Shown: positions 1,466 through 36,552, counted from the first letter of the whole stretch. The stretch: DNA of 63,658 bases, filler included, from Diploschistes diacapsis (GCA_023645945.1; 28 parts of 28 records of this genome joined end to end with filler, not necessarily neighbours in it); one strand, 5' to 3'. A program made the numbers and translations. Notes: a model not told the origin generated them from the sequence alone.

Positions 1466-1566
1466 ANNNNNNNNNNNNNNNNNNNNNNNNNNNNNNNNNN
1501 NNNNNNNNNNTTAATTAATTAANNNNNNNNNNNNNNNNNNNNNNNNNNNNNNNNNNNNNNNNNNNN
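1466..1566. other. Artificial contig linker (N-run, TTAATTAATTAA, N-run); first of ~28 identical linkers
   Basis: The same 12-mer, which gives stops in all six frames, is centred in every ~100-bp N gap. The flanking contigs are ~1450-1465 bp and decrease steadily in length. Confidence 0.97.
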
Positions 1567-3668: not shown

Positions 3669-4164
3669 TGTTGAGCAGGCAGGCAGAATGCATGGCTGGG
3701 AAGTTCAGCTGAACCTCAGGTTCAGGTTCAGTTCAGCTGAACCTACTGGGGTTCCTGCTAATCCTAATCGGGAATAGTGCAAGTCTATAAAACTTAATGG
3801 ATCCTATTAATATAAAAGCTTACATATAAACTCTTCCTTCTAATTAGACCTCTAGATATCTAAACTTCAATATATACATTACCCAAAAGGTATAAGCCCG
3901 GGTTAATTTACTATCCCGTCGCGTTTATATATTAAAAGTAATGTCTCCGGGCAAGTATTACCGTTATGACTGCGGGATTTAATTACGCTACCTATTATAG
4001 GTTAAATTGAAGAGATCTTAAAAGCTTAAGATCTGGATTATAATATTTTGGGATGATTAGATCTAAAATAGAAATTAAATTACTTATCAATAAAACGCGA
4101 GCACCGACTACGCTGCTCTGGGAAAGCTAAATTAATTAAATCAAATCAAAATTCAGGACTTGAG
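3669..4164 (+). mobile_element. Ty1/Copia family-B 5' LTR with PBS and leader
   Basis: TGTTGAGCAGGCAGGCAGAA start, followed at ~3889 by GGTATAAGCCCGGG, a degenerate GGTTATGAGCCC fungal copia PBS. The leader resembles 47821-48100. Confidence 0.75.
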
Positions 4165-4594
4165 TGTTACGATCCAAGTACCAGACTTGGCACGTCCCAG
4201 CTTTATATATAGATCAGTCACGGGACTAGGGATCACGTAATGCGCTTACTGCTCGCGTTTATTCTCGTAAGCGGCGAGTAAGCTTTCGCCACCGCTCGAT
4301 AGTCGCGCTTATTTTCGTAAACGACGAGCCTCGAAAATACCGCTCGTTAAACTTGCGATAAACGGCGAACGAGTTAATTATATATAAACACGATTTTATT
4401 TTCGTAAAAAAAAACGTGTTTATTTTCATAAATATCTTTAATTATTACTCGGGATTAATTTATATTCGTTATTTTTATTTTTAAAAAATCTTTTTTTAAA
4501 GATAATTTAAGATTTATAATTGTTCTATTTTTTTTTCTTATTTATATTCTTTTTTTAACAGAGATTAAACTTATTTTAATTTTACTCGTGTATA
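4165..4594 (+). mobile_element. Gypsy family-A LTR, truncated by gap
   Basis: Reverse complement of 526-980 and 33394-33848. Confidence 0.85.
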
Positions 4595-4694
4595 NNNNNN
4601 NNNNNNNNNNNNNNNNNNNNNNNNNNNNNNNNNNNNNNTTAATTAATTAANNNNNNNNNNNNNNNNNNNNNNNNNNNNNNNNNNNNNNNNNNNN

Positions 4695-5415
4695 AATTTA
4701 TAATAATTATGAATTTTTTTAAAGATCAATAAGAACAGTACCCAGTTATATATAGAAAGTTATATATCCTTATAAAAAGGATTTAGGACTGTATTCGACA
4801 ATATTATAATTTATTAGAATATAGATATAAAGGTATTACGAATACTATCAAAGCCATTGAACGAAACTACAATTTCGAAGGAATGAAAGAACATATTATT
4901 AATTTCATTAAACAATGCAACAGCTATTAAAAGAACAAATATTTAATATATAGAAAATACGGCATTACACAAACGAAACCCAAATTAGAAAAAACATATT
5001 ATTTAATTATAATGGACTTTATCACGAAATTACTAAAATCTAAAGATTTAGTAATAAATATCGAGTACGATTCTATCTAAATAATCGTCGATAGATTCGA
5101 TAATAAACCAATATATTTATCATTTAGGAAAAACTATAATGCTCAGAAGCTGCATGTAATTTAAGCCGATAGAATAACTAGACACAACGGCCATTTAAAA
5201 GAAATTATTAGTGATCGGGGATTACTATTTATATCTAATTATTAAAAGATAATGATAAAAGTCTTTGAAATAAAGCTAAAGTATTTAATAATCTTTCATC
5301 CGCAGACAGACGGACAGACAGAAAGAATAAATCAAACATTAAAATAAATACTACGCCACTACGTTAATTACGAGATAAATAAATGGGTAAAACTGTTACT
5401 AATAATCGAATGGAG
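4695..5415 (+). mobile_element. Gypsy integrase remnant (RIP)
   Basis: MDFITKLLKS, EIISDRG and FHPQTDGQTERINQTLK motifs with many stops. Confidence 0.85.
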
Positions 5416-6257
5416 CCTAAAATTTCGCCACCATTAAAGAAAGAATGTTAAAAACACGGATATGAAATCATCTAGGATGACTATAATAGGCGATAGTTGT
5501 AAGGCTAAGCGACTAGCACGCCAAGAGTCGGACAAGCGGCGCTCAGGGTCTTGGCTTGCTAGTACTTGAAGGGGGATTTTGCCTTTCTTACTCTCTCTTC
5601 TTCTTTAGTAATTAGTCCTAGCATGAACCTGCCCTGCGTATAATTATCTTGCCATATTGTCGTATTTTATCTTTTATAGTTTTAATTACTTTACCTTTCT
5701 TAAAAACGACGATCCGACAAGATAGCACGTCCTTCGCAACGTACACGTAGAGTAAACCCACGTAATCAAATTAAAATAAAAAAAATAAAGGAAAAGAAAG
5801 AAATAAACGATCTAGAATTACTTTATTTAATAAAGAAGATTTAGATCATATCGAGTAATAAAAACGAAACTCGCAATCTAAAAGTAAACATTAGTAAACG
5901 AGTCGTTAAAATAAAAAGATGGTTTCGAATATATATTAAAGGATATATTAAAAATAGTCAAAAATATATTATTAAAAATAAGATAAGATATAAAATTTAA
6001 AAAAAGCTAGGTAGTAGAGGCGAGAAAAGATGCCCTCGTCGAAAAAATAAAAAGAATTATTATTAAAGTAGCATTAATAACCGAGGTATTGTATAAAGGA
6101 TAAATAAATTAAAATCATTTAAATGCCGTAAACCGCTACCGCGATATTAAATTAAATNNNNNNNNNNNNNNNNNNNNNNNNNNNNNNNNNNNNNNNNNNN
6201 NTTAATTAATTAANNNNNNNNNNNNNNNNNNNNNNNNNNNNNNNNNNNNNNNNNNNN

Positions 6258-6793
6258 AGATAAAGCAGTTATAGATCTTAGATTGTTTCTAGAAAAAAGG
6301 TTTTTTAATAATAAAGATACCGAATAAATTAATCTCGAGCAATAATTAAGAATATTTTTAAAAATAAATACGTTCTAAATTTATGAAGGTTATAACGACG
6401 TTCTTATATAATTAATAATTCTCTTAATAAAATAAATAAATAGATGAATAGAGTTATCGTTCTTTTCTTTTATTTATAATTAAGTAGAACGGTCTTTTAG
6501 ATCTTTTATTTATCACGTGACCCGTGTTACCTTAATTAGATTATATATAAGGAATGGTTAGGAAATGCCCGACTAGCTATTGTGTGTTAAGTACTATCGA
6601 CTAGTACCTTGGATCGTAATAAAAACTATCGTTCTCCCGTTTTATCTATAGAAGGTAAAATAGCCTCTAAGGCTTTTTATTTATTACGTGATTAATGTCA
6701 TTATGATTAAATTATATATAAGAAGTGATTGGGCTAGGCCCGATTAGCTGTAAAATACCAAGTAAACTATTATTTAATCACTTGGATCGTAAC
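6258..6793 (-). mobile_element. Two nested or tandem family-A-related LTR fragments
   Basis: Two termini on the plus strand: CTTGGATCGTAATA (~6621) and CTTGGATCGTAACA (6793). They match 62821-63275 and 34215-34634. Confidence 0.7.
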
Positions 6794-7878
6794 ATTAACT
6801 CGCTTACGATCAGAACGTACCTATTTTTACGGATCTTTTAACTCGATTTAACGTATAAAGAACGGGTTTAGATCGTTATTTGATTCGAGAAAATATTTAC
6901 GGGATTAATAGGCCTACGGACGCGTATATAGGTTAAATATTTAGGCGGTTATAACGTTAATATAGCGATTTAAATTTAAAAACGTTCTCGATTATTAATA
7001 TTTGCGCTTATACGAGACCCGGATCGCGAACAACGTTCTAACGAATTAAATTATTAATTTAAAAAAAATAATAAATCGATTAAATAATTTAAGTCTATTT
7101 AACGTTATTTTGGTTTATTAAAACTTATTCCTCTCGACGTCGATTTCTATATTTCGTAAATTTATTATCGATTTATTTACGTTTTCTCGTATTATTTCTA
7201 ATACGGGACCCTTTTAAATTAACTCGGTTTCGCTTTTTATATCCGCTCGTATTCCGTTTATAATCCGTACGGAACCCGTTTCTATCCGGTTAAACATAAT
7301 CTCGATTAATTTGAAAATAACGATCGAAATTTATATTAACGGTTTTCTTTCGTTTCTTTTTAGTTTCGTTTCGATTGTTAATCGTATCTTACGTTTTATC
7401 GGTTCTATATAAAGTTTCGATAAATTTATTTTATTAAAAGAATATCTCGAATTAATATCGTCGATTAATATTTAAAATAAATATTTTCGATTCGAGTCGG
7501 ATTTTAATAACGAAACAACTTTAAAGAAAGAAACATACCGAACTTATAAGATCGAGAAGATTCAGTTCGACGATTATTACGCGAGCTGACGCCGGACAAA
7601 AAACGGACAAAAACGAAGAAAAAAGGATTAAACGAGGGGCCGGAACGGGTTCGAGAAGCTATAAAAAAATATTTAATTAATTAAATAATTTTATTTAATG
7701 TATTTAGATTTCTTTTAAAANNNNNNNNNNNNNNNNNNNNNNNNNNNNNNNNNNNNNNNNNNNNTTAATTAATTAANNNNNNNNNNNNNNNNNNNNNNNN
7801 NNNNNNNNNNNNNNNNNNNNCTGTTTCCGAAATCGCCTTCATGAAACCTCCCCCTCCCCTTCATACATGTACCTATAG

Positions 7879-8028
7879 CGCTCGCAGGGCTACACGCTGG
7901 CGGTGCGTACGACGTTCGCCGAGCTGGCGGACATGCGCTTGTACGACACCGAGTGCTCTGCGCACCAGGCATTGAAGGTATTTGGGGCCCCGAAGAGGGA
8001 AGGCGGCGTGTTGGTTTTTTTTTTTTGA
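7879..8028 (+). CDS. 3' exon of a stress-responsive A/B-barrel (Dabb) domain protein; 5' part lost in gap
   Basis: After acceptor CTATAG it reads RSQGYTLAVRTTFAELADMRLYDTECSAHQALKVF, typical of fungal Dabb C-termini. The exact stop is uncertain because of a T12 homopolymer. Confidence 0.6.
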   Translation, partial: RSQGYTLAVRTTFAELADMRLYDTECSAHQALKVFGAPKREGGVLVFFF

Positions 8029-8529: not shown

Positions 8530-11500
8530 ATTAACGCGATTTGTACCTTGAAACTCAAAAATTATCCAAGAACGAGATCTAATGTGTGGTCAACGTCGTT
8601 GATCGCTTGTATCATTTGCAGGTATCCGTCACTAAACGGGATGCGGATTCCTTGGAACGATGAAATATTCGAAAACGAACGGGAGATCATCCGGTCGATG
8701 AAACTGGAATACTTCTTCCCGATGATCGCCGATGCCTCGCTTGTGCAGATGCTGCTATCGTACTTGAAATTGAGACTGTAACCCGTGATGGTCTTTGACA
8801 CTTCCAGATGTAGCACATAGCCAATCGGCATCGTTACACGATGTCAGCCATGACCATCCAGCGCATATGCTTCACCGACGTAGTTGCGGGCTCAAATGGC
8901 TGGAACAAGTATAATAAGCGACTGGCGGTCGTGGCATCAGCAGATCCTAGTGCTTTGTTGATGTTCGTCGAGTTGATTGACCCGCGTTCAGTGGATTTCC
9001 GAAAAAGATCCTTGTGGACTTGAGAAGGCTCCGTACGTGAGTATTGCTTCCGAACGAGCCTCGAAACGGGGGGAAGTTGGCGCAGTTACCGTTAATAGTC
9101 TGTGCATCTTCCAGAGAGATATTGAGACCGGTGATGAGATTGTCATAGACAACGTCGGGTTTACCGCTCAGCTCTGATAGAAGAATGGTAAAGGCAGACT
9201 GGAAGACGATGGGAATTGTGACGCCGCACTGCGCAGCGAATCCATCGACTCGAATATCATACTGCAGAGTGAATGTGGTAGAAACTTGTCCACCGCGAGT
9301 AGCTTCGGAGAGGGCGGGACAAGGCTTGGGAGCATCGTGCAGGAGCTTGACCCAGAAACTCAGGGTATCTTTCTGCTGCTGCTCTGGTTTGGAAAAGATA
9401 TGACCGACATAGTTTGAGAACTCCAGGGAAGGAGGAAGGACGGAATTCCTGTACCTAACCTTGAACTGTTCGTCGAATATCCTAAAGTAAAGTGCCGTCA
9501 TACATCGCATGATGGATCTTGATAAGAAGGTGCTTCTCTCCGGTCGAAGGTGTATCCAAAAGCCAATAAGTAATGAATGGCTTGCCATTTTCGACCTGGA
9601 AGATCTCTTCCCAGGTCAGCACTGCAATCTGCGGGTCTAGGCGTGGATCCTTTGTAACAATCTGCACCCATCGTTCATTATCAATGGTCCACATCGAGCG
9701 GAGTATGTGATTGTGTGCAGTAAGCCGCTGGGTGTGATCTCACTCCATGAGTTGAAATCAAAGTCTGCAGGAAGTTGCCGCAAGGTTGGACATTGCCAGA
9801 ATTGCTGTTTCGCTGCACCTCGAATCAGAATTCCTCAACGCCTGGTACAACCGGCCAGGCTGCTTTGTATATTTGAAACTAGGAATAGCGGCAACTCCCA
9901 AGGCATTCCTAAGCCGGCCAGAGAGTTTGGAGGTGCATAGTGGTGACGTGGGGCCGCAAACAAGCTGCCATATCTTGTAGTACCGGAAACGCCATAACAT
10001 CAGCTACAGAAAGCGAGCACCCCGATCCGCGGCACTTTCTGACAAGGTTAATTGCTGAAATAGAGTCGCCTCCAAGCGGGAAGAAAGAGCTCACGATGCT
10101 GATAGCCTCCTCGTTGACGCCGAGAATCTCAGTCCACAGTGAACGTAAAGCAGACTGTTCTCGGGTTTTCGGCTTTATATCACACCTTGACCCTCGCCAG
10201 CAAAATTATTGATCGATAATGGTATTATCCATCCCCTGCACAAGAGATGCCAATTGAAGTCGATTAGCATTTCCAGAAGGCAGTTGAGGGACTGACTTTA
10301 GAGCTATCCAAACCGATGGAACCATGTAGGATGCCAGAGTAGTAAGCCTCAGGCTTAGCGAGGTTAGCAATTCTTTGTGCTGGTCAACGTCAAGAATCAA
10401 GCCATCAACAGGCTCGCCACAGTCTATTTGGCTTTCGTTCCGTATCTCAGTCATCACGACAATGGCATCCGGCACAATTTTAGTGGCTAAAAGGGCACTC
10501 TCGACCCCTCCAATTTCGATCCGATGGCCGTTGACCTTGACCAGACTATCTTTTCTCGCCCGCAACATTCTATCTGCTGCCGAGGGCCCCAGCGAGCAAG
10601 ATCGCCTGTTCTGTAGATCTTTCTGGACCCATCGTGACGAAAGCCTTTTGCGTAGCTTCTGGTAGGTTCAGGTACTCTCGTGCTAATTGACAGTCCCCGA
10701 GACAAAGCTCGCCGATAGCGCCGTAAGGCATGGGCTTGGTCCCATCCTGCTCAAGAATCATTACGGAGCAGTGTTTCAGAGGTCTGCCAATGATTCTTCA
10801 ATTAGAATGCGGCCCGATAAACTCGGCTGCGGAAAGGATAGAAGCTTCTGTGGGTCCGTACCAGTTCATGACTTTGCAATGTTTCGTCCATATTTCTGCA
10901 AGATCTTGCGGAACTTGTTCCCTAGCCAGATATATTCCTTGCACACTGAGCAAATCTTCAGGCTTCAACAACCTGGCAACGGTCGGCGTAGGGAACAATG
11001 GTCAATGCTCATCTCATTGATGACATCAGGAAGGTTGGTAAGCATGTCCTCTGATGAAGCCATACAAAGCGGGGCCACAACTTTGAAAGTGCAGAAGATG
11101 TCACCAACGGCAACGTCGAAAACATAGGAGAACTCGCCAGGATTGTTCAAAGCTTTCAGCTGCAAGAATGTTATTAATTCCAGAGGAGATGGACTTGTGG
11201 AAGATAATAGGCCAGATGATCTGGTGTCAACCCAGGATTTTGAAAGTTGCCATCATGATTACGTTGGCAATCGATGTCAAAAATGTCCAGAACTTGGACA
11301 CTTTTCATGGAGTCGTTGAAAATAGGAACGTAGTCCTCGGTCGTAATTACTAACATCGCCGATACGTCTTGAACAATGAGGTTGTTTTTTTCAGCTGGAT
11401 TATCGGGATCCAAAGGTACAAAAGCTCCTCCGGCCTTAAGGATAGCTAGTATACAGAGTATCTGCTCCGCAGACTTGGGCAGACAGATAGAGACCAGCAC

Positions 11501-12050
11501 ATCTGGGCCAACACCTTGTTCTCGTAGATGACTGGCGAGCTTGTTGGCTCTAGCATTCATTGTAATAGGCGTTTCGGTTTTGAAGCAGAGGCCCTGCAAG
11601 TCCCCCAACAGCTGCAGTGATTTCTTCGAAGGCTTGCGCCGTGCATGTTTCGCGTATCATGGATCGGAACGTCACGACTTCATAACGTCACGGCGAATGT
11701 GACATCGGAATTTCCTGTATGCCGCGATAGAATCAAAGCCCAAGCAGCGTAGATCAACACCCCAGTGGATGAGGTCGCCCTTGAGGTCAGGAGCCTGAGG
11801 TCCCCTGTACCGGTTTTCTTGGACACATTGAAAACATCAGTCTCCCAGCTCATACAGGTTGGTTGAGCATTCTTCAAATATTCTGTCCAAAATGTCTTTG
11901 CAGCACCCACGTCAGAGCTCTGCAAATGCTGCACAAAAAGGGAGAATTGAGGACGATGCATGAGCGACTTTCCCTTATATGCTGTGTTCATATCATCGAA
12001 AGAAAAAGCTGGACAGCAAGAAATCAAATAGTCCGTGATGCATGCTAACT
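8530..12050 (-). pseudogene. NRPS pseudogene (partial C - A - T - C), possibly siderophore-synthetase type
   Basis: Motifs are spread over several frames: ILKAGGAFVPLDP, FDVAVGDIF, NWYGPTEAS, IYRTGDLARW, VKVNGHRIEIG, the T-domain FFPLGGDSISA and the C-domain HHAMYDG. There are many frameshifts and stops, and the A10 Lys is lost (PSGN). Confidence 0.88.
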
Positions 12051-13885: not shown

Positions 13886-15046
13886 ATGCCTCTCGACCCA
13901 AGCCTCCTCACCTCGGCCATTAGTGCCATGGTTGGATACCCCGTGATTACGTATGAAGAGTACCAACGCAATCGGCCAGCGGGCTTTCATCCGCTTGACA
14001 TGGAGGCATTCCACAAGTCAGTATTAGTTGCACCAGCACCGGCACCAGCACCGGCACCGCGACCGCCGCCGCCGCCGCCACCTTACTCTGGGTCTGTACC
14101 CCCGCCGGGGACGGGATCAGGGTCGGGAACGGGGTCGAGCTCGGTGACGCAGCCTGGGATACAGCCAGGGACGCAACCGTCGCAACAAGTGCATCAGCCA
14201 TGGACAGGACTATGGTCGCAAGTGGTAACTCGAGCGGGAGAGGTACTCCAGCCGGGGGCGACTACACAGGAAGTGCAATCGACCCAGCCATCGAACGCCC
14301 TAGTCCCGGGCCTGCTCAGCATATTCGTCAAGACGTTGACGGGCAGAACGATCACGATTCCAGTCACATTGAGCGAGACAATCTACGAGATCAAGCAGAA
14401 GATTGAAACGAAAGTGGACATACCAGCCGAGGAACAACGGCTCGTCTATGCCGGGAAGCAGCTCGAGGATGGCCGGACCCTGCGTGACTACCAGGTCGAG
14501 GAGAACGCAACTCTCCACCTGGCGCTTAGGATTCGCGGCGGCGGCCCCACTGGAATGTACCTCGCGCAGGACTTCCTTGATCCGAGCTATGATTTCGACT
14601 TCACGAAGGTGAACGACTACGGCGTGTCGTTCTCCCGCGGGAAGGAGGTGTACCAGCGCCCGACCGGATGGCAGCGCTTTGCGCTCAAGGTGGACAACAA
14701 GTACGGCTCGAATCTCACTTGGTTGGGCAGCTCGAACGTGACCGGTGAATGGCCGGTTTCGTATCACGGCACGAGTCTGGCGGGCGCAATGTCCATCGCC
14801 GACGAGGGTTACAAACTGGCGAAATCGAGGAACTTCGTTTATGGTCGCGGGATCTATTCTTCGCCGCGACATACGATTGCTGAGGCGTACGCCCAGACTT
14901 TCCAGAAGGATGGGAAGAAGTACAAGGTTATCTTCCAGAATAGGGTGAATCCGGCCCAGCTTCAGAAGATTCCTAAGATCGATTACTGGATTAGTGCCGC
15001 GGATGCGGATATTCGTCCGTACGGTCTATGTATCAAGGAATACTAG
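13886..15046 (+). CDS. Pro-rich/PPxY + ubiquitin-like domain + NEURL4-type ADP-ribosyltransferase domain protein (386 aa)
   Basis: Intact ORF. A 76-codon Ubl spans 14315-14542 ([13 protein letters not shown]...[19 protein letters not shown]...LRIRGG). ART motifs are [36 protein letters not shown] and [10 protein letters not shown]. Confidence 0.88.
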
Positions 15047-15672
15047 AGAACGAAAGCTTAGGTGATGAAGCTCTTAGGAAAATGCATCTTTGTTTTCTCG
15101 TGGAGATTCTACTCCATCGAACTTTGAATCTCAATGACGAAGAAAATGGAAGTAGTATCGAAAGCCTCATTTACGCTTTTCAACTAAGATACTAGTCGTT
15201 TGCCCAATGAAAATTAATGTCGCGAGTCCGATAGGGTAATGGCATGAAGGACTTTCTTGTCCCCACACAATATGATTCCTTTTCCTGTCGCTTTGCGCGC
15301 TAGGCAAAGAATCAGCACGCAGAGCATTGGTGTGAAGAGGGGGGGGGGACATGTCCACACGAGACGCACTAGGTAACGAACAGGGTTGAAATGGCGATGC
15401 TACAGCTGCATTGCCACTTCGAAACCGACCGTCGAGATGGAAAGTGGTCGGGCTCGAAAGAAAACAATGGCCTCGAAAACCAGTCGGCTAAGTAGACCAA
15501 TATTCACTCCATCTTCGTCAGCTGACAGCACTGTCGTGTCGTCTTGGAATTGCACACTAGTCATAATTAGGCAGATAGGCGTGCAGGTGCTGTGGTGGCT
15601 TATAAATTGCAGGCTCACAGCCGTTGATGCTTTCTGTTATTCTTGACCTGAAGATTGTTCGCAGCTAGCAAT

Positions 15673-16731
15673 ATGTCAAACATTTTCTGCCTTCAATGCC
15701 GACAGCGACCTAAGAGTACGGATCACACGTTCTGCTCCAAGCAATGTGGCCGTACCGCTGCCGATTACGCTCCAAGTCTTCTGTGGATTCCCACTGACCA
15801 TGTTCAGTACGCAAATGGTGTGTGCGTCATCCTCGTGCCCAGGATGCGAGTTCTAACAGTATCCTTACGGTCTCCAGTAGCACAGCATTGGGCTGATGGC
15901 TGGAAGAACGGACCAGCTCCGGCCATCAAAGCGATGTACCTGGTCACCTGGAGCAAGGCTTCACGAGATGACTTCGAGAGCTACCGGTACGACCCAGTTT
16001 CTGGCTTTGCAGAGGGGAGTCGATTAAGAAGACCCTGGATACTAGCCGCGAAATCGAGTCCCAGACGAACTTTCGTGCAAAAGGTTGGTTTGAAGGCAAT
16101 GAGCAGAAGCGCTTCTGGGGGGTTGATAGAGCATGCGATATCGGCGAGAACGGGGTCACTGCCGTATGTTACAAAAGCAACTGCTGGCTTTGTACCGTTC
16201 TCCAAAACGGATTAAGGGGATACTTGAGAGCTCAGCGGACTCTGGGGCTGTGAGCACCACCGTTGCATAAAACTGCACCGACACCCTCTTGACATTGATG
16301 GCCTAGACACGGCAATCGGCTAGGGCCTGGCATATACACTACCAGGACTTCCTCCAAGTACGTTCGATCCCGTGTTCGTTTTTCTACAGTTTTAATGATT
16401 TACTGTTTCTCCCAGAGCAGCAGACCACGCCGTCAATGTCGGCCATGCATCGAGCTCGAATGTGCATGTCATGGTCATGTGTAGGGTCGTGATCGGGAAT
16501 TCGTACATCACCAAGACAGAACAACCCACTTTCCACAGCCCTCCCAGCAAGTACCACTCCGTGAGTCCTGCCATCGGCCAGGTGGGTAGTCTTTCTAATT
16601 CATATATCCGCTAACAGTGACTTGTTGCGCAGGTGCTCGGAGACCCTGGGCCAGGCAGCAGCTTTGCTAATAACGAGTTGGTGGTATACACCGAGCGGGC
16701 AATTCGCCCGGCCTATGTCATTGTGTACTAG
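15673..16731 (+). CDS. Six-exon Zn-finger + PARP-like ADP-ribosyltransferase-fold protein (250 aa)
   Basis: Exons 15673-15817, 15878-15986, 16046-16249, 16307-16357, 16416-16560 and 16633-16731, all with GT-AG introns of 57-72 nt, give a 753-nt open frame. Motifs: CLQC-x11-CSKQC, GNEQKRFWG, RLGPGIYTTRTSSKA, MVMCRVVIG and NELVVYTERAIRPAYVIVY. Confidence 0.85.
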
Positions 16732-17210
16732 ACATGATCTGCGAACGGGCTACAGCTTGTGTATTTAGGAATTATACGAGATAAGATGTGGGTTGGGGGT
16801 AGATGCAGATAGAAAGCAAGAGGTATCCATGCTGGGATGATCTGAAAACCCCCATCCAAGCCGCACCTTTACAAAAATTATTTCAAATCACAATACTGGT
16901 ATAGCTGTTGCATTGTGTGAGTTCCTGCTCTATACCACTGAATATTTTGAACAACTGAAGATTTAAACGATATGCATTACGAATTAATTTTATGACCGTC
17001 GATAAAGCATTATTAATTCTTTTATTCCTTTTTAAAAAACTCGCGGGACATTCAAAACAAAGTAAACATATTTTAGATTATTTTCGATAAAGATAAACGC
17101 CATAAAAGAATACAATCTGGAAGAGATTTTACCATTGAAGAATAATTTAGAAGTGAATTTAAACATGTAATATAAAATATGTTGAGAAATAATTAATTTT
17201 GGCGTTATAA

Positions 17211-17425
17211 GTCGAATAATGAAAGTAACTACTGACAGACCTTTTCGGAGGTCGTGGGTTCAATTCCCACTGCTGCCACAACCCCAAATATTTTTTTTAA
17301 TTTCAGGCTCAATATCGTAACTTTTTAATCCTAAAGCGGCTAGTTACTTTTAGCGCAACGGTCGGTACTCGGCATCGGCATAATCAATCTTTCGAGATTT
17401 CAACTTGGGTTAGTTTAGTAGGCCG
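17211..17425 (+). repeat. Right copy of the direct repeat, containing a tRNA-Leu-like 3' half (pseudo-tRNA)
   Basis: Variable-arm-like CCTTTTCGGAGG, perfect T-arm GTGGG-TTCAATT-CCCAC (17254-17270), acceptor strand TGCTGCCA, then a T8 tract at 17291-17298. No intact 5' acceptor strand. Confidence 0.8.
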
Positions 17426-17652: not shown

Positions 17653-19323
17653 ATGCCTAGGTACATTGGGATCTTATAGGGTCCAAAGTAGTGTTCTGAC
17701 CTTACCAGAGAAATCATAACGGTCCAGGCCGGCCAATGCGGCAACAGCAGTATGTTACTCGTACACAGCTAATTGAAGGAGGGTATCTAAGGCCAAGCAG
17801 TTGGGAGCCAGTTCTGGCAGCAGCTATGTCAAGAGCACGGAATAAACCAGGACGGCAACCTCGAGGACTTTGCGACCGAGGGAGGTGATCGGAAAGATGT
17901 CTTCTTCTATCAAGTACGCCTGCCTCCATCTCAAGGCGACCAAAGGGCGGCTTGCTGATCGGACCGCAGAGCGATGACACCCGCTACATACCACGAGCCA
18001 TTCTGGTCGATCTCGAGCCAAGAGTATGCTACAAAACTCAACCAAGTTGGTAATGTGCTTACAATGGTTCATCTAGGTAATACAAGGAATTCAGAGCGGC
18101 CCCTACAAAAATATCTACAACCCCGAAAACTTCTTCGTCAGCAAAGATGGCAGTGGCGCTGCCAACAACTGGGGGGCTGGTTATGCCGCGGGCGACGGCG
18201 TCCAAGAAGAGATATTCGACATGATCGACCGCGAAGTCGACGGCAGCGACTCCCTCGAGGTATGCCTCCCTCTTTCCCTCGTCTTCCCCATCACCTTTGA
18301 CAACGGCGCCAGGGCTTCATGCTCCTCCACTCCATCGCCGGCGGCACCGGATCCGGCCTGGGCTCGTACCTTCTCGAACGCATGAACGACCGCTACCCCA
18401 AGAAGCTGATCCAGACCTACTCCGTCTTCCCCGACACCTCCGCCGGCGGCGGCGACTCGGTCGTCGTGAACCCCTACAACTCGCTCCTTGCGATGAAGCG
18501 GCTGACGCAGAACGCCGACTCGGTCGTCGTGCTCGACAACGGCGCCCTCTCCCGCATCGCCGCGGACACGCTGCACATCCAAGCGCCCTCCTTCCAGCAA
18601 ACGAACCAGCTGGTGTCGACGGTGATGTGCGCCTCGACCACGACGCTGCGCTACCCGGGCTACATGCACAACGACCTGGTCGGCATCGTGGCCAGCCTGA
18701 TCCCCACGCCGCGCTGCCACTTCCTCATGACCTCCTACACGCCCTTCACGGGCGACAGCGTCGAGCAGGCCAAGACGGTGCGCAAGACCACCGTGCTCGA
18801 CGTCATGCGCCGCCTCCTGCAGCCGAAGAACCGCATGGTGTCGACGACGCCCAGCAAGAAGAGCTGCTACATCTCCATCCTCAACATCATCCAGGGCGAC
18901 GCCGACCCGACCGAGGTGCACAAGTCGCTGCTCCGCATCCGCGAGCGCTCCCTCGCCACCTTCATTCCCTGGGGCCCGGCAAGCATCCAGGTCGCGCTGA
19001 CGAAGAAGAGTCCCTACGTGCAGAGCGCGCACAGGGTCAGCGGGCTGATGCTGGCGAACCACACGAGCGTCGCGACGCTGTTTCGGCGCATCGTGGGCCA
19101 GTACGAGAAGATGCGCAAGCGGAACGTGTTCATCGAGGGGTACAAGCGCACGGAGCCGTTCAGGGACGGGCTGGAGGAGTTCGATGCGGCGAGAGAGGTG
19201 GTGGGGGGTTTGATACAGGAGTATGAGGAGGCGGAGGGGGAGAATTATTTGGATGTGGGGAACTTGAACGTTAAGGGAGAGGGAGGAGGAGGAGGAGGAG
19301 GAGGAGCGGGGACTGGGGCATGA
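17653..19323 (+). CDS. mipA: Gamma-tubulin, complete, six exons
   Basis: Exons 17653-17660, 17709-17749, 17801-17913, 17970-18023, 18077-18259 and 18313-19323. Reads [15 protein letters not shown]...[27 protein letters not shown]...[10 protein letters not shown]...[13 protein letters not shown]. Confidence 0.97.
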
Positions 19324-19914: not shown

Positions 19915-21123
19915 CTATCCGGCTTCGATCTGGAGTTCGGCTGCTGACTCTCGTTTTACTCTTGTCTCTGTATCCAAAGACACTCTGTGTGTTGTCCTGT
20001 CCTGCGACTCCTCCATGGCTGATCCTCCTTTGTAGCGGGAAAAGGTCGTTGGCCGACCTTTTGTGGGCGCTGGCGGCTCTAGGAGGCCTGCGTATTGCTT
20101 TTGGCTCCACCAACCTCTACTTGTATGCCCGGTGTTGCTCGGTCGGTACCGTAGAGCTTTCGAGCGCTTGCTTGCCCCAGAACTTTCGCGTCCGAAGAGG
20201 CTGCGAAAGGTAGACAGCGAGACTACGATTACTGCCGTCGCGGCTTCCATGGCTTGCCAGAAGGCGATCCAGGACGTGTCGCGAACTCCATTAGGCAAAG
20301 GCGCGAGAGTAGTGCGGACGATGGCCATGACGATCATGGCGCTTGAGAGGCTGAGCATGCTCCCGAGCGTCAGCTTGCGGCGCAGGCTGATGTGGACCTT
20401 CCAAAGGAGGGCAACGGGCACGGAGATGATGAGGACATCTGTAAAGATATCGAGTGCTGAGGTGACATTGAGGTAGACGCGCTCGCGGTAAAGCTGGAAT
20501 GCTATCGGGCAGTACTCTAGTACACACGTGAGCGCTCAGTTCCACGACGTAAGTGGCTTATGCTTACGCATGTAGTCGGACGTAAGAACAGGGCAGATCA
20601 TGAAACCCATTGGCATAGTCGCCAGCCCACAGACAACCGTGATACCTGTAACTACCCGCCAATGGATCTCGAACACACGCACTCGATCAACGAGCTTGCG
20701 GAACAAGCAGAGGAAGGAGAGCTTGATGGCGTAGATTGTTGACCATATCAAGCAACTACATACTTGAATCCGCTTCTCGAAGTCGAGCATCTGGACATAA
20801 AAGTCTGGTGGCGGTGCTTGCCAGCCTAAGCCGACATAGATTTGTACGTACACGAGATGATCAATGGTGTATGCAAACCCAGCGGCAACGGCACTAGCTG
20901 CAACCGCGTAGAAAAGAAAGTAATCGTCGGCATAGAATTTGCGTAAGTGGTAGAAGCGAACGATAGTTCTCGCCACAGCGGACACCACGCTGATGGCAAG
21001 AAACGTTGCGATGAAAGCCTGAAGAGGATCAGGAGCGTTGCTTCAGCCTCAAGTCAAGTCTCTTACCACGAAAGCCTGAGGTTGAATGCGCAGCGAGTAG
21101 CTAGCTGGGACAGAGACATCCAT
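19915..21123 (-). CDS. PTH11-like (fungal rhodopsin-domain) integral membrane protein, three exons, no CFEM domain
   Basis: Introns at 21019-21066 and 20517-20567. Motifs FYADDYF, WSTIYAIKLSFLCLFRKL, LDIFTDVLIISVPVALLWKVHISLRRKL and EAATAVIVVSL; multiple hydrophobic helices. Confidence 0.87.
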
Positions 21124-21438: not shown

Positions 21439-22715
21439 CAGTCACGTGCCAAAAGTAATGGTCCCTACCTAAATTATAGTAGACATCACCAACTTTGGAG
21501 ATGCGATGCGCACCCAAAGAATGTCCTACAAATGCGCTTTTTAGATCATTTTGATGCCCTTTATTCGTAGTATCTATTAATACTTTGTTTACCACCCCTG
21601 CGCGTCGTATACAGCCTGAATTCGCGTAGGTATCGAGTAGATTAATCGAGCAGGCAAATCCCACTCCCTATCTGCCGTAATTTGACCAAATGCCTCGATA
21701 ATAGCAGCTTTTAAAGCCTGTTTCTTATTATCCTTGCTCCCACGCATTGTTTTAAGCTCTGAATGAAACCGAAATACCTCCTCTTTTAATCTAAGCCAAA
21801 AATGCTCTATAGCGTTTAAATCTGGACTATATGGTGGATGATCGAGAACCCAGACGCCGAGACTCTCTAAAAGCGTTTTAACAACGTTTGCAGTGTGTAT
21901 AGAAGCATTATCCTACAAAAAACCTTGCCCAGGTTCGTAGATTTGGGGCAAAATATCCCTTAATAAAGCACAATAAGCCTCGGCGGTAGCACTTCGTCCA
22001 TTTATATAGTAATCTTCGAAGAAACACCACACGACGCGTCCATCGGCTCTCATACCAGCCCAAAGCATGATGCTTTCCTTATTTCTAACCGTTTTTGCTA
22101 GGTGATCGGGAAGCCATTGTTCTCCTATATATCTCCATACCCATTTTCGTACTTCACCACTTCCTATTGCTATAGAGCACTCGTCGGTGAACCAAATATT
22201 AACAAAATCCTCGGCGCGCCAAGTTCGGTGTATTCGGGAATACCTCAGGCGTTTTTCCGCATCTTCAGGCTCTAAATATAGCTTCCACCGCATCCTATAT
22301 TTTTTGAAAGAGGGGTCGATGTCGCGGAATCTTCGGCGCACTATATTTTTGCTGATAGACGAGATATCGAGCAATTCAGACCACTCAGATTCTGGATGGC
22401 GTCTGGCCGTTCGATAGAGCCTATTTTCTTGATTTTCGGACGTTATTCGAGGTCTTCCGGAGCGCTTCAGATCATCTTGGTCTTCATCACGCTCTGAAAC
22501 CTTTACTATTGTCTTTTTGGCTGTAGAATAAGGAATATTTAGCCTATTGACTGCATTTTTCAGGATAGCACCTGATCTGTATGCGCCTATAAGCTCAGAG
22601 CGCTCCCAGAGCTTCAAACGACGATATGGTGGCATTATTGTAGAAATAATAGTAGGCATTTATTGTTTATTTGCACCGATTTAACCGAGGGACCATTACT
22701 TTTGGACTAGTACTG
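21439..22715 (-). mobile_element. Full-length Tc1/impala-like DNA transposon (1277 bp)
   Basis: TA target duplication at both ends. TIRs are CAGT-N6-CCAAAAGTAATGGTCCCT and enclose the transposase. Confidence 0.93.
21577..22659 (-). pseudogene. DD34E transposase with premature stops
   Basis: RSGRPR HTH linker, WFTDEC, FL*DNASIH and HPPYSPDLNAIE (34 residues between D and E). The stops are at positions consistent with CAG>TAG and CAA>TAA. Confidence 0.92.
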
Positions 22716-23336
22716 TAGCTGCTAGATAGCGCTTTTTCTGGGGCCTTGGCAATAAACTAACCTAATGTAACAGCGGGGTTAGCGGGGTTAGTGCCTAATA
22801 GGTAGCACTATCCCATACACAGTATAGTATTTCAAATTCGGAGTTCTCTTTCGGTGAAGCGAACGAAAGCAATGGCAGCACACCTGTTCTGTGCCATCAA
22901 CGGCAAGACGTACCGTGTATCTGTACATCCAGAGGCTTTCGACTTATCGAAGTAGAGGTTCGGAGGTCGGATGTTGGAGGAAGCCGCTGTTAGTTCATGT
23001 TGAATTGAATGGCGTTGAAGGCGCCAAGCTTTTGGTGCAGGCTAACACTCGGATAGATGAGCTTTGACTTTAAGCAATAGATTTGGTCAGTGGAAGGTCA
23101 GTAACGTCTGTCATCTACGCCTCTCTCCCAATTTCTCCCACTCCCTGCTGTGGCAAGTCACTCACACGTTCTCAAGCACATTCGACTGTCGCAATGTAAG
23201 AGACATATAGGAATACTTTCCAGGCAACTTCTCTGCCCACTCTGCGGTTCAAGGAGCATAGCAATGACATGATTCGCCGATTGTTCCCGCCCGGCAGTTT
23301 ACGTACTTGTTCCTTGAGCTTGAATTCAATAGCAGG

Positions 23337-24884
23337 ATGCCACCCTCTAATCGACCCTCGAGGGTCTTCGCCGCTACAATCTTTATCTTCCTTATATTTT
23401 TCATCTTCCACCATGTTCGACAGGTTCCAGCTGAGGCAGTGGACACGTATTTCCCAGATGCGTCAAGAATGGAGCCCGATTACAAGCCATTATCTGACGA
23501 ACAACATTCGTCCAGACCCTTCTTCGGCTCTCCTGGGGCCGGCGTTCTGGCGCCTCCGGTAGCCGAGCCAGAAGACAGCTCGGAAGTCAAGCCGGAACTC
23601 GTCGAAAATGCATATAGATTACCCACCGCAGACTCGTTTCGAACGCATTTCAGGGCCGTTACTCAATTGCAAGGGATGTCGGTGGAGGAAGCCAAATCCA
23701 GCTGTCAATGGCCGGAAATGAGCGAGGTCAACTTCCAATTCCTTGAAAATGATCATGAATGGGTGAAGCAGGATCCAAGCGATGCGGAGGTCGAGGCGCA
23801 GAGAAAGAAATGGCATGATTTCGTAGACAACAGGCTGGTGCCGTACGAAGATCACAAGAGTCGATTCGAGGGTCGAGGTATAGTTATTGTTGCTGGGAAT
23901 GAACAAAGCCTGAAGCGGGTGAAAGTTGTTCTCCGAGCACTGAAAAAGCTGGGGTCCAACCTACCAATTGAAATTCATTATTGGGCGGATGAGATGACTG
24001 AGGACTACAAGGAGGACATTTCTGCCATGTGGCCAGAGCTGGCTTTCAATGATCTCTCGGCGCCATCAAACGTTCTCAAGACTAACCATGATGGGCTTTT
24101 CATTAATTACCAGCTGAAGACGGCCGCCGTGGTGAACTCACGCTTTGCGGAGCCACTTCTGCTCGACTCGGACAACATCCCCGTTATGGACCCGACGTCG
24201 TTATTTGAATCCTCGGTCTATAGAGAGTACGGTACTTTGTTTTGGCCGGACATCGCGCGAACACGTCCCAACAATCCAATCTGGAGCGTCACGAATACTC
24301 GATGTCGCACGTACGAGTACGAGCAGGAGAGCGGGCAAATGATTGTGGACAAACGACGCTATTGGTACCACCTCCAGCTCGCGGCTTGGATGAACAACGA
24401 AAGTGGTGAATACTACAACAGGTACCTGCTTGGAGATAAGGACACCTTTCGCTTTGCGTGGCATGCGTTGCGGACCGAATATGGTTCGCCATCGAAATGG
24501 CTTACAAGTGTCGGCACCATTGCAGATGATGGGTTTTATTGCGGTCATAGCTTCGCGCAGTATCATCCGGACGGGGGTGTCGCATTTTTGCACGGAGGTC
24601 TGATCAAGACAATGGCCAAAGAGGTTATTAAATGGCAGCGGGATAGCCGCGGAGGCGTCTTTCAAGTTTACAAGAAAAGCGACTACGACGAGCAACATTT
24701 TATCAACGTCAACGTCTCAATCAAAGCGGACCCGGCAACATATTTGCCGGATAGGCCGGAGAATCTGGCCGTAGCTCTGTGTACAGATTTCCACCAGGTT
24801 ACTGCGCGGCCGATGGATGAGTTGGCGTCTGGGTTCGAAGAGACGTTCCGGGAGATTGGCGGTTATTGGATGCTCGACGATTAA
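23337..24884 (+). CDS. GT71 family alpha-mannosyltransferase (Mnn2/Mnn5-like), type II membrane protein
   Basis: N-terminal TM anchor. Motifs GRGIVIVAG, LPIEI, LLLDSDN (DxD), LFWPD, EQESGQMIVDK and GDKDTFRFAW. First ATG at 23337. Confidence 0.9.
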   Translation: MPPSNRPSRVFAATIFIFLIFFIFHHVRQVPAEAVDTYFPDASRMEPDYKPLSDEQHSSRPFFGSPGAGVLAPPVAEPEDSSEVKPELVENAYRLPTADSFRTHFRAVTQLQGMSVEEAKSSCQWPEMSEVNFQFLENDHEWVKQDPSDAEVEAQRKKWHDFVDNRLVPYEDHKSRFEGRGIVIVAGNEQSLKRVKVVLRALKKLGSNLPIEIHYWADEMTEDYKEDISAMWPELAFNDLSAPSNVLKTNHDGLFINYQLKTAAVVNSRFAEPLLLDSDNIPVMDPTSLFESSVYREYGTLFWPDIARTRPNNPIWSVTNTRCRTYEYEQESGQMIVDKRRYWYHLQLAAWMNNESGEYYNRYLLGDKDTFRFAWHALRTEYGSPSKWLTSVGTIADDGFYCGHSFAQYHPDGGVAFLHGGLIKTMAKEVIKWQRDSRGGVFQVYKKSDYDEQHFINVNVSIKADPATYLPDRPENLAVALCTDFHQVTARPMDELASGFEETFREIGGYWMLDD

Positions 24885-26078: not shown

Positions 26079-27365
26079 GCGTGACCGAGCGTCCTTCACT
26101 TCGCATGCCACTTTCTTTGAGAGCCGACACATCTCTCAAGTCATCGATACCCAGCTTGTACATGCTATTATTCAGGGAGTTGTTTAGCAGATAGCACAAC
26201 ATTCATCGATTTCCATTGCCTGCTCCATCTCGGTAGTACTGGTCAAGACGGTTGGCTTTGACAGTACTCCGTACTACTTGACGTGTGCACGGTACGAATG
26301 ATCCGACAAGTTATTCAGTTGGAGCTGCTGTCAAGGGGTGCTTGGAGTCTGTATTGTGAAAACTACGAGCCATGAACAGCTGGTTGAGTTAGTAAAGCGC
26401 AACGATGCGATTCAAATTTCTTTTTTTACATACTTGCATGCTTGAGCGAATACTATACATCTTGCTGCAGGGTTTCCACAAGCTCTGACCGTAGTTTCTC
26501 CATATAATAGTGTATACGACATAGCGATCATGGTGGCCCAAGCGCTGCGCAGCTCTATTCTGTGAGTTTGCGAATTCTAGGTCGGGCAGGTCAGTGGAAA
26601 GCATCAGCCCTTCAAGAAGTCTTAAAAATGTTGACTTGGGCTTGAAGTAGATAGTAGCAAAGCCATGAAGGAGGCTTGACGCTGACGCTAAAAATAGCTA
26701 CAGCCCTAACAGCTTTGGATTGGTCATGGAAGGACACAAGGCCCGCAGCACACGGCGCCTATTCTCCTCAAATTCTCCTCCACACTTCTCACCATCACCC
26801 CAGGAATGTCCATTCAGACTCCCTGTACTTTTTTCAGAGCTTCATGGATAGCGTCCTATCCCATCGCCAGCTTCTCAGCGGTTCAATCCAGCATCGACTC
26901 CCATTTCTGGTCTGCTATGCCGTCACCGCAGGTTCGCGGCGCGTACAAGGCACGCTCCTGTACCGACCACCTTCATGATGAAAAGCTCTCCATGGCAAGG
27001 TCTTTCTCGGCGTCAGGTTTTCGCATTCTCCTTTGCTTCTGCTTTTCAATTCCGGCCGCTGCTGGGCCAGCTTTCCTTTCTCATCTCTTTTCTTAATATA
27101 ATGTATTTACCGAGTGTATAATATCAGTATATCTCAAATGTCGAGGGCCAAGTCTTTGAAGCCTCATAAGTAAGTCATTGCCTCTTTCAGGTGCTTCGCC
27201 GCCTTCAACATACTTGCTGTGGAGGGGCTGCCACCGCACAGCCCTTTGATTCTAGCCTCCGTGTGTCCTTGATAACACAGTTTTGGCCTTTCTGAAGCCG
27301 CAATTAGCTCACTGTGCCAGCCCGTATCGATAACACGCTGACGATGGGTTTAGTCTTCCTGCACC

Positions 27366-29429
27366 ATGTTGGCGGCTCTTTTCTTATGTTTATCGCTTTT
27401 AATCGATCTGACGTTGGCTGGTCCACGGTTATATTCTCTACTCCCCTCTCAAAAGTTCGCTTCCGTACCTCAGTGTGCCTCTTCCTGCCTAGAAGAGTTC
27501 ATTGCCACTTCCTTTCCGACTTCGACGTGTCCAGAGCAGGGAGACATTGCTTGTCTCTGCACCAGCAATAGCCTCTCGGGGTTTACATTGGGGGAAGGTG
27601 CACTGCAGTGCGTTGCTGCTAGTTGTCAAAACGTGCCTGTTTCCGAGTACCAAGCGGCGTATGCGGTTTGCGCCAACGTCCCTAATGCCGCTCCTGAAAC
27701 TCACGGCACCATCTCAGCAACCATGGCTTCTCCTTCGACGATTCTTTTCAACCCAGGAAGCAGTCCAACTTCGTCAGCAAGCAGTGCTGCTCCCGCTTCC
27801 GACAGCTCTGCCAGCGTATCATCCACCATAACGGCCTTGGTCACCAACACTGCCAGCCCCTCTCAGCAGACTGGTTCTTTTTCAATTCGATTTTCTGGGA
27901 CTTTGGATCCCTCTTCCGGGTCCCCAGAGTGGTCAATGAGTTTGGCCACTGCCACGGGTATTGTCGCAACCCCACAAGCCGCCTCCTCTACCGCGCTTGC
28001 AGCGCGTCCAGTCCTGGACACTTCACAAGTGATAGGCGTTTCCATCGCCGGAGGCGTACTTTTGCTGGCTGCAGTAGGCGTTTTGTTCTTCATCTTTTGC
28101 GCGAAGCGAAGAAAGGAGGCTAGACGGAACAGTGCATCCTCCTTCGGGGGCGACGAGATTATCGGAGGTGCTCCGAATATTTTCGACAAGAATCTTGGAG
28201 GGGATAGTCCCCACCCTACAAGCGCACAGCCAAATTATGTCTCGCCCAAAGCCCAGCAAATTCTCGGACCCGATTTGAACAGATGGAATCTTTGGCACAG
28301 GGCGCCAAAGCCCCAAGATATCGGTCTCGCGATAACGCCAAGGCTTGAGCAAGGATTTGTGTCGAAAACATCACCTGCAAGCATAGCTAGCTACCAAACG
28401 ACGTCAAGACTTTTGCCAGACAAACCGATATATCCTCAAGGACAAGCTCCAATGTGGCGGCCTTTCCTTCCACCTATCTCTCGCAAAGCTGTTCCTCCAC
28501 CTCTTCCTCGAAGACCTGTTCGCTTCGCTGGGGGTGTAGGACTGCGGATAGTCAACCCAACACCAACTGCTTCAAGCTCCAACTCGAAGGAATTACGCCA
28601 AAGTCCACACTCGAGTCCGGAGTCGGTTCACAGTGGGCCAATTATCAACCGACAGCCCTCAGACCCTTTTTTCCGGCCTACCGAAAATTCTCTGCTAAAA
28701 CCCAAGGCAACGGGATTAAGGAGGGCCTCCAGAAATGATCTACCTCGCCTCCTGACCTCGACCAGCCAGCGTACTGCAACTGGATGGGATCAGAGTACGC
28801 CACAGTCTCTATCTCGACCGCGCGCTGCATACAATCCTGCTGAATATGCACGCGTGATGCAACAACCATCCCAGCAGTCAGTATGGAAACCTGCAGCCCA
28901 CCCGACAGCACAACCTCCACGACCGCAGCGGGCAGGCAACAATCTTCATTTCCCGACACATCCCCAGTACATGCCGTACGATCCGTTAGCCGTCGCACAA
29001 GAACCCACCTTCAACAAATACGCTCCGATCAAGACCTTAAAATCTAGTAACATACGGCCCCTCACGTATCTAACCACCGGCTCGGAAACAAGCTTCGAAG
29101 ACGACAACGACGGGGACGACGCTCGCATCTCGGCTGCGTGGCCCATGTCAGCAGCCATCGAGCCCGTCCTTTCGCCAGTCGCCGAGTCACCTCGAGGGCA
29201 CTCACAAGCGCAAGCTTCACCGCAACCGCAGCCGCATCCGCATGCCCATCCGCGTCCCCATCAACAACCACAACCCCTCAGCCAAATCCGCTACCCACCT
29301 ATCCCGCGTAAACCTTCCTCCAAAAAAACTCTACGCAGCTCCCCCGCAAAACCTTCTCCCCACTCTCACTCTCCCGCCAGGCCCTCTCCAAAACCCAGCA
29401 TCTCCCCCTTCAGCACAACCTCCAACGCG
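27366..29429 (+). CDS. CFEM-domain single-pass membrane protein, 3' truncated by gap
   Basis: Signal peptide, eight-Cys CFEM domain (PQCASSC...CPEQGDIACLC...QCVAASC...VC), Ser/Thr stalk, TM helix followed by KRRK, and a long Pro/Ser-rich tail. Confidence 0.85.
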
Positions 29430-36540: not shown

Positions 36541-36552
36541 CGTTAGCGATTT

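Follow-up and report, generated by a model that had tools for sequence, protein, structure and literature searches.

The stretch of DNA analysed here, called the window in the following, comprises 63,658 nucleotides (nt), filler included, from Diploschistes diacapsis (GCA_023645945.1; 28 parts of 28 records of this genome joined end to end with filler, not necessarily neighbours in it). At 15673–16731 its plus strand carries a six-exon gene for a protein of 250 residues, in which an N-terminal four-cysteine (Cys4) finger is followed by an ADP-ribosyltransferase (ART) domain of the PARP type. We refer to it as the finger-ART gene. Where PARP-type enzymes have the histidine that orients nicotinamide adenine dinucleotide (NAD+), the predicted protein has a tryptophan.

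All features of this gene lie on the plus strand, and its six exons were derived from 15000–17400 by inspection of the sequence and translation in three frames. The coding sequence, from ATG to TAG, opens at the first in-frame ATG downstream of a stop, and a possible TATA box (TATAAAT, 15601–15607), which was read from the sequence and could function as such, is found 66–72 nt 5′ of it. Exon 1 (15673–15817) encodes residues 1–48 plus one nucleotide and carries the Cys4 finger. It is followed by intron 1 (15818–15877; 60 nt, GTGTGT to CAG, with a CTAAC branch-like site), exon 2 (15878–15986; placed by translation and alignment to the orthologue introduced below), intron 2 (15987–16045; 59 nt, GTACGA to TAG), exon 3 (16046–16249; with the RFWGV motif and an inner Cys4 cluster) and intron 3 (16250–16306; 57 nt, GTGAGC to TAG). 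Exon 4 (16307–16357) contributes the GIY motif, with the TAC codon of Tyr163 at 16335–16337, and is separated by intron 4 (16358–16415; 58 nt, GTACGT to CAG; the model is backed here by the family alignment) from exon 5 (16416–16560), which contains His174 (CAC, 16426–16428) at a position where the family has Tyr. Intron 5 (16561–16632; 72 nt, GTGAGT to CAG, again with a CTAAC branch-like site) leads to exon 6 (16633–16731), which holds the NELVVY motif, with the GAG codon of Glu233 at 16675–16677, and the stop codon. The coding sequence amounts to 753 nt with a single, terminal stop, and all five introns are of the GT..AG type and 57–72 nt long.

There is a second in-frame donor for intron 5, GTGGGT at 16582, which would yield 257 residues. 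The 250-residue form is preferred because neither the orthologous protein nor the family alignment contains the 7-residue insert. It is also to be noted that the gene was described in an earlier, sequence-only inspection of this DNA (below, the first-pass annotation) as invisible in the track of open reading frames (ORFs). The gene is indeed fragmented there, but a stop-to-stop frame of 187 codons (15652–16215) is seen in the ORF scan; it spans exons 1 and 2 and is then out of frame, and it is visible because intron 1 consists of 60 nt without a stop.

The six-exon model of the first-pass annotation is borne out by comparison with other species. With exon 3 as the sole query, one protein was matched, namely the 250-residue ED733_002423 of Metarhizium rileyi, at 70% identity over the exon. 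The complete spliced product aligns to the same protein from end to end and with no gap, with 189 of 250 residues identical (76%) and all junctions covered. Since the alignment is gapless and at 76% to an annotated protein of another species, the gene model is not a product of chance. ED733_002423 is an orthologue of the same length, with the same Trp-Tyr-Glu (W-Y-E) combination of catalytic-site residues and the same cysteine pattern.

Additional support comes from a metagenome locus (L001, on a contig of 3,088 nt), the single locus obtained from 76 pattern matches with a smaller family alignment (A3). This locus is basidiomycete-like and has FRS at the His site, and all five of its introns interrupt the coding sequence where those of the finger-ART gene do (1379–2440 of the contig compared with 15673–16731 of the window). 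The branch of the family to which the gene belongs (see below) is mostly basidiomycete, with patchy ascomycete members. Such sharing of introns could mean that they are ancient, or that the gene has passed between the two phyla. Two public M. rileyi annotations differ around intron 4, and the one that matches the family agrees with the present model. By these sequence comparisons the finger-ART gene is confirmed as a real, intact and spliced fungal gene.

The other M. rileyi annotation, NOR_07999 of strain RCEF 4871 (252 residues), shows some 30 residues of unrelated sequence after TSSK, apparently from a mis-spliced intron 4; as a practical matter, the gene is thus mis-spliced in one of the two public annotations. 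An extra stretch at the position of intron 5 in the Mycena polygramma member resembles a retained intron. No second copy was found in the window, where tblastn with P0001 (the M. rileyi orthologue), P0011 and P0172 matched only the finger-ART gene and an upstream gene that is discussed below. Searches of protein collections brought up no protein flagged as encoded in the window.

Two cysteine clusters are present in the protein, with the spacings that had been proposed, and all eight cysteines could be located. The N-terminal one, C6-x2-C9-x11-C21-x3-C25 (15688–15747), has Cys in 101–114 of 160 family rows (the alignment is described below) and shows an F-C-S motif, and we take FCS (/MYM-type) to be the name for such a finger. 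As to the previous designation as FCS/treble-clef-like, the pattern C-x2-C..F-C-S-x2-C can be seen, but no curated Pfam finger model reaches its cut-off, the only match being DUF7129 with 14–18 bits against a cut-off of 30. The second cluster, C115-x10-C126-x4-C131-x2-C134 (16134–16193), is a putative structural zinc site with Cys in 154–156 of the 160 rows; its four cysteines are invariant in another alignment, A1, which consists of 106 family members with the M. rileyi orthologue as first row. Its position is the loop that directly follows the first catalytic strand; where PARPs have their donor loop, the protein may thus carry one that is stabilised by zinc.

Concerning the catalytic positions, the 160-row alignment confirms that Trp109 (TGG, 16116–16118), in the motif RFWGV, occupies the site of the NAD-orienting His. 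The protein keeps Tyr163 of GIY and Glu233 of NELVVY, as well as Gly110 and Ser168/169. This replacement, with the Tyr and Glu kept, is as first proposed.

We now turn to the fold. The M. rileyi orthologue scores 42.9 bits against the Pfam PARP model (PF00644), well above the cut-off of 26.7, while single exons of the window gene reach only 14.8 and 11.7 bits. No other domain was found above the Pfam cut-off in the orthologue and its relatives, and there were neither ankyrin repeats nor a SAM domain; a PLATZ match in two Boletus relatives is below the cut-off. When the profile made from A1 was compared with solved structures, tankyrase-1 and tankyrase-2 were the best matches (E 3e-23), followed by PARP4, PARP3 and PARP1/2. 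An AlphaFold2 model of the orthologue, calculated with A1, has a predicted local distance difference test (pLDDT) score of 96.9 and a predicted template modelling (pTM) score of 0.93. A Foldseek search of the PDB with this model again places tankyrase 1/2 first (E ca 1e-14, template modelling score up to 0.77 on the target, ca 20% identity), with PARP3 also among the top matches and a probability of 1.00. On the basis of the modelled orthologue, the finger-ART protein is a Cys4 finger joined to a compact, tankyrase-like PARP/ART fold.

The resemblance to tankyrase-1/2 extends to the absence of the helical regulatory domain of the PARP1 type from the compact ART core, and to the GIY, SSK..Y and x-E-x-V-V-Y (last-strand) motifs, which are common to both. 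There are also clear differences. The finger-ART protein has no ankyrin repeats or SAM domain, its His is replaced by Trp, and the identity is only ca 20%. Furthermore, its inner cysteine cluster follows the first catalytic strand, whereas in the printed tankyrase alignment the Cys/His-rich, zinc-binding stretch comes after GIY.

The protein belongs to a large family. An exhaustive phmmer search with the orthologue as query yielded 1006 proteins at E<=1e-3, 408 of them at E<=1e-10. In the databases the members are named only "PARP catalytic domain-containing" or "hypothetical", and matches in the ESM Atlas fall only into clusters called "PARP catalytic domain-containing protein", most commonly in Basidiomycota. 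The 160-row alignment used here contains the window protein, the M. rileyi orthologue together with eight basidiomycete members, and the 150 best representative matches. The rest of the fungal family differs from the finger-ART protein in being mostly of the His-Tyr-Glu (H-Y-E) type and in having, in many cases, long N-terminal extensions; the basidiomycete members P0002–P0009 lack the N-terminal finger. In the His column there are 126 H, 19 R, 4 Y, 2 W, 2 Q, one each of F, C, L, T and A, and 2 gaps, and the columns of Tyr163 and Glu233 hold Tyr in 150 rows and Glu in 149, respectively. Trp occurs at the His site only in the window protein and in M. rileyi, and the nearest relatives almost all have F-R-(G/S/C/A) there.

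Phylogenetic trees were calculated with two programs. For FastTree, 147 of the 160 rows were used, after 13 fragmentary or gapped ones had been left out and the His column removed. In the result, the window protein falls into a group of 21 rows that are all without His (R 16, W 2, Q 1, L 1, T 1). The group has a Shimodaira–Hasegawa-like (SH-like) support of 100 and a branch length of 0.5, while 119 of the other 126 rows have His. A quick IQ-TREE search, likewise without the His column, with 60 rows, namely 20 of the 21 His-less ones (the aberrant P0113 was left out) and 40 others chosen by hand, puts the 20 His-less rows on one side of a branch with an SH-like approximate likelihood ratio test value of 100. 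The window protein also shows the signature residues of the His-less group: S22, T72, W73, F108, G140, L145, R149, G155, A171, A175, R193, F229, A245 and Y246. It is thus placed inside this branch, yet without the Arg that is usual there (16 of 21 rows).

Because the finger-ART protein nests in a supported group of 21 rows without any His, the loss of His must be old. The Trp would then be a later, derived state, with no occurrence known outside the window and M. rileyi and with Arg as its probable precursor; TGG is one base change away from the Arg codons CGG and AGG. The basidiomycete members of the His-less group are from Boletales (Hydnomerulius, Boletus, Rhizopogon, Melanogaster, Paxillus), Armillaria, Mycena alexandri, Auriculariales and Ceratobasidium, and the ascomycete members are scattered (Halenospora, Hirsutella, a Trichoderma sp., Emydomyces, Ophidiomyces and M. 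rileyi). One Auriculariales sp. has two proteins of this branch with consecutive accessions on one contig, one with Arg and the other with Thr at the His site, and these are likely tandem paralogues.

With the family at hand, changes specific to the lineage can be identified. At columns that are conserved in both the His-less and the His-bearing groups, the window protein and M. rileyi have three changes in common, F53W, the Trp at 109 and Y174H. More than 90% of the rows in each group have Tyr at position 174, which aligns, in the printed hidden Markov model (HMM) alignment, with the Tyr of the tankyrase SKSNQY stretch. The corresponding Tyr of tankyrase and PARP1 presumably stacks on the nicotinamide. 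One further change, G215K in a column that is 95% Gly, is found in the window protein only.

The missing His and the G215K change could be taken to indicate that the gene is a decaying pseudogene or an artefact of gene prediction, as could its location in a gene island that is flanked by AT-rich blocks resembling the products of repeat-induced point mutation (RIP) and is close to a transposase remnant. We consider this very improbable. The six-exon frame is intact, with no stop or frameshift and with zero indels relative to the orthologue at a protein divergence of 24%, and the eight cluster cysteines are kept. The differences between the window protein and M. rileyi avoid the conserved columns, affecting 7 of 58 family-conserved columns and 50 of 183 others (Fisher p 0.02; Mann-Whitney p 0.0013). 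At columns that are at least 90% conserved the window protein deviates in 3 of 21, which is within the range of the family, since 19 of 138 full-length rows show at least as many deviations. Moreover, the GC (guanine plus cytosine) content of the coding sequence is 0.61 at third codon positions, compared with 0.52 and 0.48 at the first and second. The intact frame, the absence of indels and the avoidance of conserved columns disfavour a decaying pseudogene, and the comparison points, with modest strength, to a gene that evolves under a constraint like that of its family.

We can now consider what the protein might do. According to passages of PMC9189837, the His and the Tyr orient NAD+ in PARPs, and PARP9 (Q-Y-T) and PARP13 (Y-Y-V), which lack the His essential for NAD+ binding, are inactive. 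Taking these statements together with the Trp at the His site and the His at the pocket Tyr, canonical use of NAD+ is unlikely for the finger-ART protein. The interpretation that we favour, with a probability of roughly 50%, is that the protein no longer binds or uses NAD+ in the canonical way; a pseudo-PARP would be the most likely form of this, and a strongly altered use of the cofactor a less likely one. In this scenario, the NAD+-orienting His would have been replaced already in the ancestral branch, mostly by Arg. In the lineage shared with M. rileyi the site would then have become Trp, for which a single base change from CGG or AGG to TGG would suffice, and Tyr174, at the position assigned to the nicotinamide pocket, would have become His. 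Tyr163 and Glu233 are retained, as are the Gly that follows the Trp and the fold as a whole. The folded ART domain would serve to bind or scaffold, and the finger would act as its targeting module. Less probably, the protein would be a transferase with a remodelled cofactor pocket.

A number of points weigh against this interpretation. The Arg-dominated group keeps Tyr163 in 100% of its rows (21 of 21), Glu233 in 95% of the filled rows and Tyr174 in 91%. Since this retention looks like that of working enzymes, the branch may be active and the Trp may be tolerated. The retained residues listed above (Tyr163, Glu233, Gly110 and Ser168/169) are all present in the finger-ART protein itself, although at the 76% identity of the only two Trp sequences the retention of a single residue carries little weight. 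The structural model is that of the orthologue and not of the window protein, the pocket role of position 174 is drawn from the printed HMM alignment and the residue roles in tankyrase and PARP1, and the constraint test is modest (p 0.02) and confined to the protein level. Finally, a search for biochemical or expression data on the finger-ART gene or the family members gave none.

Several of these points speak for a different scenario, in which the protein is still an active ART. Here, the Arg would hold NAD+ in the His-less branch, just as it does on the equivalent strand of R-S-E enzymes of the cholera-toxin type, and the Trp variant would be active as well, perhaps by stacking on the adenosine moiety, with a changed affinity or target. 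We regard this as possible, although at clearly lower odds than the pseudo-PARP. It is consistent with the retention of Tyr163 and Glu233 and with the very high confidence of the fold prediction for the orthologue. The residue that follows the Arg or Trp is small in all rows shown, which is compatible with backbone contacts to the nicotinamide. The Arg-Ser-Glu (R-S-E) combination is, furthermore, a functional ART triad, as stated in a part of the preprint 10.64898/2026.07.25.740670. On the other hand, no His-less member of the PARP family is accepted as active in the relevant passages of PMC9189837, the window lineage has the second pocket change Y174H, and Trp can make up neither for the charge of Arg nor for the hydrogen bond that His provides. 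Among the His-bearing members, four of the five rows with Tyr or Phe at the His site (P0065, P0111, P0118 and P0130, but not P0074) are also without Tyr163 or Glu233. Changes of this kind thus seem mostly to indicate a dead enzyme, and dead copies seem to arise repeatedly.

A more far-reaching version is that the whole branch is a eukaryotic PARP-fold lineage that has independently exchanged its His for Arg, with Tyr and Glu kept (R-Y-E), and is still active. It would then represent an intermediate, still living, of the diphtheria-toxin/PARP and cholera-toxin classes of ARTs. This we judge to be rather unlikely. If it were so, the Trp form of the Metarhizium lineage would be a natural third state, in which either the cofactor is held in a novel manner or an enzyme has recently been turned into a binding module.

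It is instructive to compare the protein with known ARTs at this point. In the R-S-E enzymes of the cholera-toxin type (ARTC) an Arg stands at the His position, as it does in most of the nearest relatives of the finger-ART protein; we take the Arg of R-S-E and the His of H-Y-E to be structurally equivalent. The finger-ART protein itself is not of the R-S-E class as delimited against H-Y-E in a part of 10.64898/2026.07.25.740670, because it has Trp and not Arg and is otherwise PARP-like in its Tyr motif and tankyrase-like fold. Counterparts under our preferred pseudo-PARP interpretation are the human pseudo-PARPs PARP13/ZAP (Y-Y-V), PARP9 (Q-Y-T) and TASOR, which likewise are PARP folds without the NAD-orienting His. 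They count as non-catalytic modules (PMC9189837 for PARP13 and PARP9, PMC7532188 for TASOR). PARP13 shares with the finger-ART protein an aromatic residue at the His site and the possession of zinc fingers. However, the finger-ART protein keeps the catalytic Glu that PARP13 and PARP9 lack, its finger is of the Cys4 type while those of PARP13 are CCCH, and no specific sequence kinship to the human pseudo-PARPs was found.

Next, the gene upstream has to be considered, since the first-pass annotation had presented the two as carrying opposite losses, His being absent from the one and Glu from the other. The neighbour (13886–15046, plus strand) is a single-exon gene for 386 residues, in tandem with the finger-ART gene and 626 nt away. 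In its product, a conserved motif at the N-terminus and a linker rich in Pro are followed by a ubiquitin-like (Ubl) domain (PF00240, E 7.5e-26) ending in LRIRGGG and by a divergent ART domain, and we call this protein Ubl-ART. The ART motifs are YHGT, GIYSS and, in place of the Glu motif, DYW. In a 59-row alignment of its family, a Glu motif is absent, and Y-H-G-T, G-I-Y and the Trp of D-Y-W reach a conservation of 90% or more. Its relatives are annotated as "ubiquitin" and are widespread in fungi, including Glomeromycota. The RGGG end of the Ubl domain resembles the cleavable C-terminus of ubiquitin but sits in the middle of the protein, and the GG is at least 90% conserved in the 59 relatives. 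If the neighbour is processed there, a free ART domain and a conjugatable Ubl would be released.

The motifs of the neighbour, with His and without Glu, are thus as had been stated, but they do not represent a loss. His-Tyr-non-Glu is a normal state of mono-ARTs, and the neighbour has therefore lost nothing that could make up a complementary defect; H-Y-I, H-Y-L and H-Y-Y enzymes, for example PARP16 (H-Y-Y), are described as active mono-ARTs in a passage of PMC9189837. The two proteins are not close paralogues by sequence, as BLASTP between them gives E 0.53 and hhalign a probability of 94% for the GIY region only. The His, Tyr and Glu of the ART triad line one NAD+ pocket of one chain. Judging from the fold, these residues could for this reason not be shared by two chains, and opposite losses in two proteins could not make up for one another. 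The idea of a loss complementary to that of the neighbour does not hold on the other side either, since the His loss was inherited from the old 21-row branch, in which 16 rows have Arg, and did not arise beside the neighbour. As the trees place it, the loss predates the present gene neighbourhood.

These results bear on the proposal that the finger-ART protein is a dedicated non-catalytic partner, a decoy or an antidote of the adjacent Ubl-ART, with the two genes forming a functional pair. The proposal can draw on the tandem arrangement on one strand, on the ART folds of both proteins and on M. rileyi, where the orthologues of the two genes are also adjacent (OAA35419.1 and OAA35420.1, consecutive on one contig of 205,897 nt). 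The adjacency is, however, conserved in one lineage only and could be plain inherited synteny. Apart from M. rileyi, no named species of the His-less group appears among the 120 listed of the 1040 Ubl-ART matches, which is weak evidence. Together with the greater age of the His loss and the mono-ART character of the neighbour, these observations make the proposal doubtful, and we consider it improbable. The metagenome contig with L001 gave no convincing Ubl-ART match (best E 0.052), its 3,088 nt being too short for linkage. A complex prediction for the M. rileyi pair (residues 133–376 of Ubl-ART), in which the alignments were unused, gave no answer, its score being 0.00 where the mark is 0.34, and counts neither for nor against the proposal. 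Of the roles suggested in the first-pass annotation, a pseudo-enzyme or an altered specificity thus remains plausible, and the partner role is without support beyond adjacency.

The significance of the finding lies in the fact that the H-Y-E pocket defines PARP-type enzymes, and that members without the His are the textbook dead PARPs. Here, a large and unstudied fungal family holds a whole conserved branch without His, mostly with Arg and in one lineage with Trp, in which the Tyr and Glu are kept. If the branch is active, the requirements of the PARP fold for the use of NAD+ would have to be revised, and the two great ART classes would be linked. If it is inactive, it would represent an ancient and compact type of pseudo-PARP in fungi whose donor loop is stabilised by zinc, and it would be a convenient model for such modules. 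Full-text searches of the literature yielded no account of the finger-ART family, nor of a PARP fold whose triad contains Arg or Trp (R-Y-E or W-Y-E). The term "r-y-e" occurs 0 times in the main text, supplements aside, of the fungal PARP preprint 10.64898/2026.07.25.740670, and the main text of Citarelli 2010, additional files aside, contains neither "arginine" nor "tryptophan". Table S6 of the preprint may bear on the partial loss of catalytic residues.

Finally, some observations can be made on the surroundings. Blocks with a GC content of 28–31% (1–8000, 30000–40000 and 48000–56000) alternate in the window with gene islands of 41–59% GC, an isochore pattern that is typical of RIP. With this alternation and its short introns, the window resembles the genome of a filamentous ascomycete. 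A shorter AT-rich patch, at ca 16860–17230, starts right after the finger-ART gene. A fragment resembling the T-arm and acceptor of a transfer RNA (tRNA) is seen in the AT-rich patch at 17234–17279, where ARAGORN finds no tRNA and all Rfam matches are below their gathering scores, and it may be a remnant of a tRNA or of a short interspersed nuclear element. The next gene downstream (18301–19323, plus strand) encodes a tubulin, with the Tubulin_C domain (E 9e-46) and the tubulin GTPase domain (E 7e-22) in one frame. On the minus strand at 8947–11656 there are short frames with pieces of a nonribosomal peptide synthetase (Condensation E 1e-07, AMP-binding E 3e-18), which come either from a multi-intron gene or from one that has decayed where the AT-rich block begins or ends. 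A frame at 21913–22659 (minus strand) shows a weak match to a helix-turn-helix of the Tc3 transposase type, which at E 2.3e-05 falls short of the Pfam cut-off; the frame is probably what is left of a transposon within the gene island. The other genes of the island encode, in the order listed, a membrane protein with a fungal rhodopsin domain (19915–21042, minus strand), a putative mannosyltransferase (23268–24884, plus strand) and a CFEM-domain protein (27354–29477, plus strand).

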